Shown here in pieces: positions 26,566-32,000 of a stretch of 32,000 nucleotides of DNA. Source of the DNA: Candidatus Iainarchaeum sp. (GTDB lineage Archaea > Iainarchaeota > Iainarchaeia > Iainarchaeales > CSSED10-239); contig JAQVTI010000005.1 in the NCBI GenBank assembly GCA_028700115.1, positions 1 to 32,000 of the forward strand, written 5' to 3'. The notes below the pieces were generated by a model. That model ran no database searches and was not told the origin of the DNA. It saw nothing but the letters and a program-made list of their open reading frames with translations. The stretch's first letter is position 1. The number at the start of each line of letters is the position of its first letter. A program made the translations under genes and the position numbers.

Positions 26566-29500
26566 TTATTTTATTCTAATTTCATATCCATAAGTAAAAA
26601 TATTTTTATCAATTAAATCTATAAAATCAGAATAATCAAAATTAATTATAAAAAATCTATCATTAACTTTTTCATATTCTAATTTTTTAATAAACTTATT
26701 ATTAATATATAATGTAGGTATAAAAATTAGATTTTTCTGAGGATTATATACCCCAAATATATTAAAAGGCCCATCATTTTCATTATACAAAACATATCCA
26801 GAAACTTCATCAAAGTATATAGAATATTTTTTCCATTGATCAGCTCTATTTCTTATATAATTACTTAGAGGATATTTATCAATCCAATAATGTTTTTCTA
26901 AAATAAAGGAATAATTTTTATTATCTTCTAAATTTGGATTTAATCTAATTTGATTTAAGATATCTTCATAAAGCCAGAAATTTCTATAATTATTATTTTC
27001 AGGTTCTTTATAAGGATATATCTTGTTATAAGGATATGAGCTAGTAAATTTAATTTTACTAAAATTATATGAATAATTTAAGATAACATCCTTACCTCTA
27101 TCATTTTCAAAATAAATATAATTAATATTAGTTTGTTCACCATCTTTATTTAATAAATTTCTAGTAAATATAGTTCCAATTTTTGGAAAATACATAATTT
27201 TTAAATCACTAATATCTACAGAACTTCTAAATATTTTTTTACTTAATAAATTATTTTTTTCTAAAGGATCTAAAAACACATAAAATCCTTCATCATCTGA
27301 ATAATATGCATACAAACCATATTCTAATATATTATCTTTAGAAACACTAATTAAATTTGATTGATTTATATTTGAATTAAGAGGTCTAAAAGAAATACTA
27401 GGATCTCCAAGTAAAAAAATAGACTCTAACCCATTTTGTTTATTTTCTTCAGAATTAATATATGCATTTTGTGTAAGTCTTAAAAGATTTGATAATTTAT
27501 TATTATAAATATTTATAGGAAACATATCATAATTAATATGAAGTGAATTATAACTTGCAAGATAATTAGATGCACCTCTATCTAAAAACTCTCTTCCTAA
27601 ATAAACTCCAGTTAGACAACTTTGTGCAAAGATAACAGGTCTATTTTCTAGATATGAATCAATATAATCTATTGTAAATAAATCTTTTGTAACTCCAAAA
27701 GAATCAGTAATTGCAAATAAATTTGGCCCTCCATGAGATATAAAATAAATTTGATCCATATTATAAAAATCACTAACTAATTCATCCTTTGAAGGTGAAA
27801 CTTTAAAAGGATAATAAGATTTTTCTAAAAAGTTTTCACTTTCTGCAATACTGTTTTTAAATAATGGAATTTCATCAAATATTTCTGTATTAAATGTATG
27901 CACATTATTTAATTTATAATCACCTAAATCTAATTTAAAATCAAAACCAATAGAGTGTAATTTATTAATAAATCTATCAACATTAATAATATAAGATTCT
28001 GAATCAGGATATAGAATGTGTGTGTATTTTTTTAATAATTCATTTTTATCTTTATATCTTCCATAATCAAAATCTAAATTTTTATAATAATATTTTAAAT
28101 AATCATTAATTTCTTCAAAAGTTAATCTTCCAACATTTAATTCAACATCTTTATCATCATCAACATTTCCATAATAAAGATTATCTAAAACAAAAGGAAA
28201 ATCTGTTAATGATTTAAAATTATTATAAATTTCCATATGAACATCACTTGCTAAATTACCAAACAAAACATCTGTTTTTACTGGAATTGCATCATAATCT
28301 CCTAAAAGTAATAAATAATCAAAAGCTTCTGTAATATGTTCTAACTTTACATTTGTTTTAATTTCTTTAATTGCTTTAGAATAATCAATATCTGCATATG
28401 AATTTTCAAAATTATCAACAATATTATAATCTAAATCTAATTTAGGTAATTTAACTTCTTCAAAATTAAAATAATAAGTTCTTTCTTTATCTTTAAATGA
28501 ATAAACATTTTCTTTTAAAATTGCATAATATGAATCTCCTCTTTTTTCTACAGAATCCACATATGCAGTTACATTTAATCCATCTCTACTATAAGAGTTA
28601 TCTAAATTATGAATATTTACATTAAAATGAATCTCTTTATTATATTTTTTTAAATCATTTAAAACAGATAAATCTGTCATTTTACGTTTAAAATTATATT
28701 TTTCAACATCATTTAAACTTGTAAGATCTAAATCTTCAAAATAAATATCTGAAATTGTAATAAAATTAAAATCATTTGAAGTTAAATAGTTTACATTCTC
28801 ATCAATAAAGCTACCTTCAATTAATTTTGCATGATTTAAAATATAATCATTAAAGTCTTCAGGAGTAAGATAATTATAATTAAATACATAGTTTAAATTA
28901 TCTAAACCATCTATTTTAAAATTATACATATTATTTGCATAATTGTAAGAAATATCCCCAGATTTATTCTCATTTGGAATTGCACTAAAATTAATTTCCC
29001 CAGAATCTTTAAAAATTAATTTTCTTATTTCAGTCCAGTCGTCTTTATCAAAATCATAATAATAATCATCAAAATATTCTGTTTTTCCATAACTTTCTCT
29101 TATAGGAAAACCAACCTCTAAACCATCATAAGTACACCCATATGTTTTCATAAAAGCTCCAAATCTATCTACATATAAACCAGTAAATGGAACTTTAAAA
29201 CACATATAAGGTTTACCAAAAATAAAATTAACTACATTCTCATTAGATGCTTCGATTTTTTTATTTTCACTAATTGGCAAATTATTATTTTGTGAAATTA
29301 AAAAATCATTATACCATATTTTATTTTTAATATCAAAAACAATTTGATCATCTTTATTTAATGCAGCTCCTAAATTCACATCCACAATATTTTTATAATC
29401 TATAACAGAAGAACTTGAATTATAATCAAATAAAGAAACAAAAGGTGTTTCTAAATAAATATCTCCACCTATAAATAAATTTTTAAAATCATAACCATTT

Positions 29501-31980: not shown

Positions 31981-32000
31981 AGATATATTTGTATCAATTG

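Follow-up and report, generated by a model that had tools for sequence, protein, structure and literature searches.

A giant, probably surface-anchored C25-family peptidase of a small-genome archaeon, with a catalytic domain that appears to be split by a long insertion

The DNA analysed here, referred to as the window, is a stretch of 32,000 nt from a Candidatus Iainarchaeum sp. genome (positions 1-32000 of contig C2, JAQVTI010000005.1; genome 0.96 Mb in 47 contigs, 89% complete). Its genes include those for split RpoA'/A'' and RpoB'/B'', L7Ae, S12, S7, an archaeal-type prolyl-tRNA synthetase (ProRS), an ATP-dependent DNA ligase, and histidyl- and alanyl-tRNA synthetases (HisRS and AlaRS), which mark the source as a small-genome archaeon of the DPANN type. 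The sequence is present in landfill metagenomes and partly in wastewater metagenomes. The subject of this report is a giant gene at the end of the window, whose product (P0002) carries a predicted peptidase domain of family C25, the family of the gingipains, probably interrupted by an insertion of some 810 amino acids (aa). On the 5' side of this gene are two genes for small membrane proteins as well as more genes for giant surface proteins, and on its 3' side are genes for HU and HisRS.

The giant gene and its product

Within the window the gene is one open frame of 1810 codons, open to the window edge (Table 1), as had been reported in a preliminary description made from the sequence alone. 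The frame lies in DNA of 19-25% GC, in a genome of 21% GC; since stop codons are common by chance in low-GC DNA, a frame of this length is far beyond chance and certainly represents a gene. The start codon is an ATG at contig C2:32076, only 26 codons past the window edge, with a Shine-Dalgarno (SD)-like AAGGTAG 8 nt upstream and an in-frame stop four codons further up. The preliminary description was right in suspecting that the true N-terminus lay beyond the window; the lack of SD-like context that it remarked on belongs to the first ATG inside the window, not to the real one. The full product is 1836 aa long and has the N-terminal sequence MLFKKNIFNILILIVFILGLFLLMFA. This N-terminus is the sole hydrophobic segment of the protein (aa 1-33 by Kyte-Doolittle), with a signal or anchor at aa 5-26, so that extending the contig revealed the suspected signal or anchor and no cytoplasmic start. 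A single N-terminal hydrophobic segment is also found in all giant homologues and most short ones.

P0002 is indeed rich in Asn, Tyr, Asp and Phe (11.2, 8.9, 8.4 and 8.2%, respectively, vs. 6.4, 4.2, 6.0 and 5.5% in 15 neighbouring proteins). The label "low-complexity" that had been attached to it is wrong: mean entropy in 40-aa windows is 3.61 bits, within the range of 3.56-3.70 for RpoA', RpoB, DNA ligase and AlaRS, and self-BLAST found no internal repeats. The idea of a low-complexity, repetitive protein was rejected on these grounds. There are 11 cysteines, ten of them in five near pairs, with Cys1487 the only one unpaired. Comparison with a full-length homologue, P0005, shows cysteines kept or lost as pairs, as expected for the disulfides of an extracellular protein.

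Table 1. Features of the giant gene in window coordinates (contig coordinates where indicated), with ratios of nonsynonymous to synonymous substitution (dN/dS) and aa identities relative to the sister-strain protein P0004.
Feature	Position	Strand	Basis or remark	dN/dS	aa identity to P0004
Giant gene in the window	26566..31998	-	codons 27-1836 plus stop at 26566-26568		
Start codon and N-terminal anchor, aa 1-26	contig C2 31999-32076	-	just outside the window		
Conserved block, aa 272-335	31072..31263	-	hhalign, P0002 272-420 vs. P0007 389-525	0.15 (aa 272-420)	89% (aa 272-420)
Putative displaced b1-a1-b2 unit of C25 subdomain A, aa 366-420	30817..30981	-	MAFFT, HMM, model 2		
Apparent insertion of ~810 aa in C25 subdomain A, aa 421-1231	28384..30816	-	predicted beta-rich; paired cysteines		
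Hypervariable zone of the insertion, aa 801-1150	28627..29676	-		0.59-0.62	60-64%
Predicted C25 catalytic core, aa 1232-1563, covering subdomain A from helix a2 onward and all of subdomain B	27388..28383	-	HMM, profile, model	0.14	90%
Codon of His1448 (ISHGG), candidate catalytic His	27733..27735	-	invariant 32/32; on RgpB His211		
Codon of Cys1487 (AQSCLTG), candidate catalytic nucleophile	27616..27618	-	invariant 32/32; on RgpB Cys244		
C-terminal region, aa 1564-1836	26569..27387	-	without family match	0.26	79%

The C25 domain and its apparent interruption

The four motifs on which a protease had originally been proposed are present in order: DYLLLLGDYDAIPV (aa 1253-1266), NVGRLTFEEINDYL (aa 1314-1327), ISHGGPN (aa 1446-1452) and FAQSCLTG (aa 1483-1490; full-length numbering). 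The codons given for the candidate His and Cys and the spacing of 39 residues between them are also correct, and the call of a clan CD, family C25 peptidase held up at the level of the family: the family profile matches RgpB, the predicted fold matches the gingipains, and the proposed His and Cys fall on the catalytic dyad.

An exhaustive HMMER search with aa 1190-1600 against 1.84 billion representatives returned 31 proteins; of 29 that were checked, 28 contain Pfam Peptidase_C25 (PF01364), with a best E-value of 1e-18. Similarity to these relatives is concentrated in two blocks, aa 1230-1337 and aa 1426-1583, with a loop between them that is ~90 aa long in P0002 and much shorter in the relatives. 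In the resulting 32-sequence alignment, the invariant columns comprise the "IP" proline, the "LD" aspartate, "GR", a Tyr, His1448, Cys1487 and a Gly; His, Gly and Cys, like the GR and GDP motifs, vary little or not at all among 32 homologues at 20-40% identity. A profile of this alignment matches gingipain R RgpB (1cvr) with E=4e-4, with the HG column falling on G210-H211-G212 and that of the Cys on A243-C244, i.e., on the catalytic dyad His211/Cys244; its match to PorU is weak (E=0.32). A hidden Markov model (HMM) made from the short homologues only scores 128 bits on aa 1237-1563 of P0002, and 65% of the protein-language-model neighbours of P0002 are C25 clusters. Besides the dyad, RgpB has a third catalytic residue, Glu152 (Asp388 in Kgp), and an acidic S1 specificity residue, Asp163. 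In the giants a conserved YPD (aa 1355-1357 in P0002) follows the equivalent strand, which is not the case in all short homologues. Two minor matches were discarded: one to PrmA at E=0.11, the lone match in direct domain scans, dismissed as spurious, and chance FimA-like matches (E ~0.4), all that a single-sequence phmmer search against the Protein Data Bank (PDB) produced.

All folds compared here are predicted models rather than experimental structures, with predicted template modelling scores (pTM) of 0.72 for model 1 and 0.43 for model 2. Model 1 (AlphaFold2, aa 1190-1600) reaches predicted local distance difference test values (pLDDT) above 90 around the active site. With this model, the top Foldseek matches are RgpB and Kgp (E=7e-9 to 2e-7; 1cvr, 6.9e-9; 6i9a, 8.3e-9), followed by separase, CHAT and caspases. 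VIA-align gives the same order, RgpB reaching a Z-score of 22.4 (274 residues, 3.5 A) and Kgp one of 20.4, vs. 14.9 for separase, ~13 for CHAT and at most 7.6 for caspases. As judged from profiles and predicted fold, the domain is an enzyme of clan CD and, inside that clan, of family C25.

The domain does not appear to be contiguous, however. In short relatives it begins with a strand-helix-strand unit (consensus GxILVxKxS-xxxxxAxxxAxxKxWxxLxV) that runs straight into helix a2 (PxxIRxxI) and then the YLLILGD strand; the catalytic domain of RgpB opens with the same unit. In P0002 the segment directly before helix a2 is unlike this unit and has a pLDDT below 40 in model 1. The clearest indication of where the unit may have gone comes from another giant, P0006 (1899 aa), in which an HMM of the unit matches aa 349-381 (E=9e-13), ~975 aa before its core, with the rest of the C25 domain starting at aa 1357. 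The best matches of the same HMM in P0002, P0004, P0005 and P0007 are at the corresponding place, each of them weak alone, and in P0002 a 21-aa insert specific to its lineage separates b1 from a1 of the unit. When giant subfamilies were compared by hhalign with the core removed, the sole conserved block was P0002 272-420 against P0007 389-525 (probability 92%, E=5.6e-7), which comprises the unit and a preceding conserved segment (aa 272-335) expected to be helical. An unguided MAFFT alignment of aa 364-1563 with the giants and short relatives put the unit of the short relatives at aa 366-420, with Gly370 and Trp414 nearly invariant.

Model 2 (AlphaFold2, from that alignment) assigns pLDDT values of 67-86 to the unit (model residues 1-60), mostly below 50 to the next ~730 residues, and 80-92 to the core. 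Compared with all PDB representatives, it matches RgpB at Z 26.1 (3.1 A), as against 22.4 (3.5 A) without the unit, and Kgp at 23.7 as against 20.4. The RgpB alignment now begins at model residue 5 and chain residue 239 (mature residue 10), just before b1; without the unit it began at chain residue 255. Small single alpha/beta lobes (racemase, binding-protein) align to model residues 4-957 with Z ~6 over 84-92 residues (2.4-3.0 A), an indication that a single compact subdomain A is made up of model residues 1-60 and 870-957. The match to PorU reaches Z 12.7, over contiguous PorU residues 404-787. Sequence and model together argue that the C25 domain of P0002 is probably split by an insertion of ~810 aa, with the two segments presumably coming together again in the folded protein. 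Corresponding insertions measure ~850 aa in P0005, ~975 in P0006 and ~830 in P0007; in the non-giant relatives examined from the same order the insertion is ~100 aa long (G090) or absent (G045). Giant homologues in other families of the order, of 1876 aa (P0007, from G075) and 1843 aa (G091), share both the N-terminal anchor and the apparent split.

The preliminary description had spoken of ~1200 undescribed residues preceding the protease domain. They are indeed without family assignment; they are not simply upstream of the domain, since ~810 of them appear to lie inside it. No Pfam or NCBIfam match in the whole protein covers aa 27-271, 421-1231 or 1564-1836, and the Atlas provided nothing usable for aa 430-1230 and 1565-1836. 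The insertion is predicted to be beta-rich. In model 2 a beta-sandwich-like stretch at aa 1148-1209 is moderately confident, pLDDT elsewhere in the insertion being mostly below 50; fold matches to the modelled insertion are weak and non-specific (sheets of phage fibre, propeller-blade and frataxin-like type; Z 2.5-3.6) and were set aside. By hhalign the insertion is not recognisably conserved between giant subfamilies, and outside the C25 core only aa 272-420 are recognisably shared with giant homologues of other families. The C-terminal region (aa 1564-1836) is homologous to P0005; similarity to P0007 is weak and confined to the last 28 aa; no transmembrane segment or recognisable sorting signal was found at the C-terminus.

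A different account of the same observations, which seems unlikely but is the strongest competitor, is that there is no split: aa 366-420 would be the remnant of a second, degenerate clan CD domain, and the active domain at aa 1232-1563 would be completed by aa 1190-1230. Tandem pseudo-domains do exist in other clan CD enzymes, as in the pseudo-protease of separase; in model 1, which lacks the unit, the position of RgpB residues from 21 on is taken by a hairpin (aa 1191-1204); and the bridging alignment biases where model 2 places the unit. That hairpin is of low confidence, however (pLDDT <40), and in model 2 it joins an upstream beta-sandwich at pLDDT 65-76. Nor does the core HMM find a second, degenerate core anywhere in aa 421-1231, whereas aa 366-420 are the sole segment with the b1-a1-b2 signature of the family and are conserved at the dN/dS of their block (Table 1), and the Z-score to RgpB rises when the unit is included. 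Should the split nevertheless be wrong, what is left would be an archaeal extracellular C25 peptidase that is ordinary and highly divergent, with unknown domains fused to it.

Conservation, distribution and neighbouring genes

The gene order around P0004, from a sister strain or species whose HisRS is 91.5% identical, is the same: an 825-aa gene, a 2144-aa giant, membrane proteins of 123 and 116 aa, the C25 giant, HU and HisRS. Codon-level comparison of P0002 and P0004 (Nei-Gojobori) gives an overall dN/dS of 0.28, very unevenly distributed along the protein (Table 1). The C25 core is under purifying selection, and the insert is relaxed or diversifying.

More distant relatives are scattered. 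P0005, at 28-33% identity over its full length, is encoded just upstream of a HisRS gene whose product is 60% identical to that in the P0002 genome, and P0007 is, like P0002, encoded near DNA ligase and ProRS genes. In two genomes of the same genus, G002 and G004 (HisRS 60-62%, as diverged as that next to P0005), the upstream giant is retained together with both small membrane-protein genes but without the C25 giant, of which no remnant was found at the syntenic site in either. The C25 profile has no match in the 16 other genomes of the same family; in the order it matches large open frames (600-1900 aa) in about 24 genomes out of 150. A raw tally of 43 of 151 genomes in the order was rejected as inflated, since ~19 match only via a small, unrelated-looking HG/AC protein of 215 aa. 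A word-index search for homologues returned only a near-identical copy, the 89% orthologue and P0005 (for aa 30-440 just the first two), and searching the genomes of 40 relatives with the whole protein gave no match. Neither is there a second such gene in the P0002 genome, where paralogous giants had been suggested as something to look for: the whole protein and the C25 profile each match this gene only. The patchy distribution, together with the conserved enzyme and fast-evolving insert, suggests that the C25 giant is an old accessory gene, often lost or exchanged.

The ~215-aa proteins form a family of their own, with FNGHG and YAIAC motifs and no signal peptide or Pfam match (L030:580-1233, +; L031:573-1217, +; ~19 genomes, not including that of P0002). 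They match the His/Cys part of the C25 profile at E-values of 1e-12 to 1e-5, and may be minimal cytoplasmic clan-CD-like proteins.

Just past the window, on the 5' side of the giant gene, are the two small polytopic membrane proteins of 123 and 116 aa (contig C2 32164-32887; L001:7096-7819, minus strand). In every related genome examined (L024, L025, L007) they follow the upstream giant of ~2150 aa, whether or not the C25 giant is present, so they seem to be tied to the upstream giant and not to the C25 giant. On the other side, between the giant gene and HisRS, is a bacterial-type HU (Bac_DNA_binding, E=2e-29; window 26148-26417, minus strand), whose position is conserved in the sister strain; in the same-genus genome G002 it is replaced by a small Cys-rich, secreted-looking ORF (open reading frame).

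Three other genes of the window, all on the minus strand, are unusual in some respect. AlaRS (21788-24481) reads as two ORFs (142 and 736 aa) split by an in-frame stop, for which a sequencing error, recoding or decay to a pseudogene might account; the sister strain has a single uninterrupted gene of 894 aa (L007:18671-21355). An ORF of at least 1243 aa at 1-3729 continues past the window edge; its first ~330 aa match PPDK_N (E=7e-100), and the remaining ~900 aa have no Pfam match. A 310-aa ORF at 19460-20392, also without a Pfam match, has a predicted TTG start that overlaps tRNA-Pro(TGG) (20353-20427, minus strand) by ~40 nt; its true start is probably further downstream.

Proposed role and comparison with known systems

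The explanation that best fits these observations, and a probable one, is that P0002 is an active, membrane-anchored surface C25 endopeptidase whose catalytic domain closes around an arm that is large, variable and disulfide-containing and is probably used in binding or targeting. P0002 would be a type-II-anchored or Sec-secreted extracellular protein, with a catalytic domain built from aa 366-420 and aa 1232-1563, the second of these carrying the His1448/Cys1487 dyad. The beta-rich arm would be a loop of some 810 residues leaving subdomain A; its distal part (aa 801-1150) changes at several times the rate of the enzyme. At the cell surface the Cys-His dyad would cut extracellular proteins or those of neighbouring cells, with the inserted arm providing the binding or targeting. 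From sequence and model we infer catalytic activity and an extracellular topology; the protein may also have a role in feeding or in host contact and attachment. Substrates may be environmental proteins (for feeding), the host envelope (for attachment or access) or the organism's own surface proteins, the last being disfavoured because relatives keep the neighbouring giants without the C25 giant. A more speculative extension, rather unlikely as it stands, would make the insert (810-975 aa) a diversifying receptor-binding arm and the whole an "adhesin-inside-protease" device with which the episymbiont would recognise particular host cells and cut their surface layer locally; rapid turnover of aa 801-1150 and gain or loss of the gene from one species to another would then track host range.

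Several points weigh against an active, split C25 enzyme. Direct Pfam and NCBIfam scans of P0002 and of aa 1150-1520 gave no C25 match at E<=1, so that the direct scan for PF01364 proposed in the preliminary description was negative. The counterparts of RgpB Glu152 and of the S1 pocket residue could not be placed, the profile alignment being unreliable in that part. A Propeptide_C25 prodomain, an Ig-like domain and the C-terminal domain of a type IX secretion system (T9SS) were all unrecognised in P0002 by Pfam and NCBIfam scans; because the gingipain prodomain and T9SS architecture is absent, P0002 is regarded as a member of the C25 family and not as a gingipain orthologue. The unit in P0002 itself (aa 367-417) scores only 3.5 bits by HMM. 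Model 2 has a mean pLDDT of 50 and leaves the insertion essentially unmodelled, and it is not fully independent evidence, because the bridging alignment via the short homologues also informs it. Nei-Gojobori dN/dS values are rough at 21% GC and a dS of ~0.4. Finally, no RNA run is listed for the sequence.

Some of these points would also suit the idea that the protease fold is a mere scaffold, P0002 being an adhesin or part of the surface layer that is catalytically silent. Over 80% of its length is without enzymatic signature, and the third catalytic residue could not be confirmed. A silent scaffold is nevertheless improbable, given that the dyad and its accompanying motifs are invariant or nearly so among the 32 homologues, that dN/dS is lower in the core than anywhere else in the protein, and that the one unpaired cysteine is Cys1487. 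A PorU-like sortase or processing peptidase, one that would mature the neighbouring giant surface proteins and be neither degradative nor host-directed, is least probable of all: PorU is a C25-family member that does match model 2, and the gene lies directly downstream of other genes for giant membrane-anchored surface proteins, but the gingipains match the model far better (Z 26 and 24) than PorU does (12.7), and G002 and G004 show that the neighbouring genes do not depend on the C25 giant.

A surface C25 endopeptidase of this kind would be of interest because it is largely unknown how DPANN archaea and other ultrasmall episymbionts attach and feed, and the giant surface proteins suspected of being involved almost never have an assignable activity. 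P0002 offers a testable enzyme, assigned to C25 and with an identified candidate nucleophile, together with a defined variable region, and active-site mutants, cysteine-protease inhibitors, activity-based probes and insert swaps would provide experimental handles. For protein evolution and engineering, the point of interest is a caspase-fold domain that apparently tolerates an insertion of 800-1000 residues after its second strand, across families of an archaeal order.

The closest known structures are those of the gingipains RgpB and Kgp of Porphyromonas gingivalis (MEROPS C25, PF01364; 1cvr, 4ief, 4rbm, 6i9a). Common to these and P0002 are the two-subdomain, caspase-like alpha/beta fold (predicted for P0002), the His-Gly and then Cys of the dyad in that order, the LLxGD..IP and vGR motifs, and an extracellular, surface-associated position, again a predicted one in P0002. 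Identity is only 15-18%, however, below the Pfam threshold in direct scans, and the His-Cys spacing is 39 residues rather than the 33 of gingipains. P0002 also differs in having ~810 aa between b2 and a2 of subdomain A and the extra ~90-aa loop between the conserved blocks, and in its N-terminal membrane anchor, where the gingipains have a bacterial signal peptide, a prodomain and a T9SS C-terminal domain; it is without haemagglutinin/adhesin domains, and its host is an archaeon. To our knowledge there is no T9SS in archaea. PorU (6za2), the C25-family sortase/signal peptidase of the T9SS, resembles P0002 in being a large multidomain surface protein around a C25-like catalytic domain; the P0002 model is far nearer to the gingipains, and the region matched in PorU is contiguous.

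Transcribed and predicted extracellular C25 peptidases have already been described in the sediment archaea Thermoprofundales / MBG-D (PMC6461988). Relatives of 500-1100 aa with PKD, Kazal, dockerin or CARDB modules and a contiguous C25 domain resemble this kind. The Thermoprofundales enzymes are of ordinary size with an uninterrupted domain, whereas P0002 is an anchored protein of 1.8 kaa with an apparently split domain, encoded in a genome of ~1 Mb. In general design it resembles the SPEARE proteins of Nanohaloarchaeota, giant membrane-anchored and mostly extracytoplasmic DPANN proteins with a protease and variable, putative adhesion regions, which were detected by proteomics and proposed to act on the host envelope (PMC6642349). 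P0002 is likewise giant and membrane-anchored, with a protease and a variable region; no sequence relationship to SPEARE proteins was found in this analysis, and the SPEARE proteins differ in having a serine protease, laminin-G and toxin-like domains, a cytoplasmic restriction-enzyme part and, in most cases, an anchor close to the C-terminus. What appears to be new in relation to these systems is a divergent C25 subfamily missed by direct Pfam scans, an apparent insertion of 800-1000 aa in the catalytic domain, and the contrast between a conserved enzyme and a hypervariable insert.

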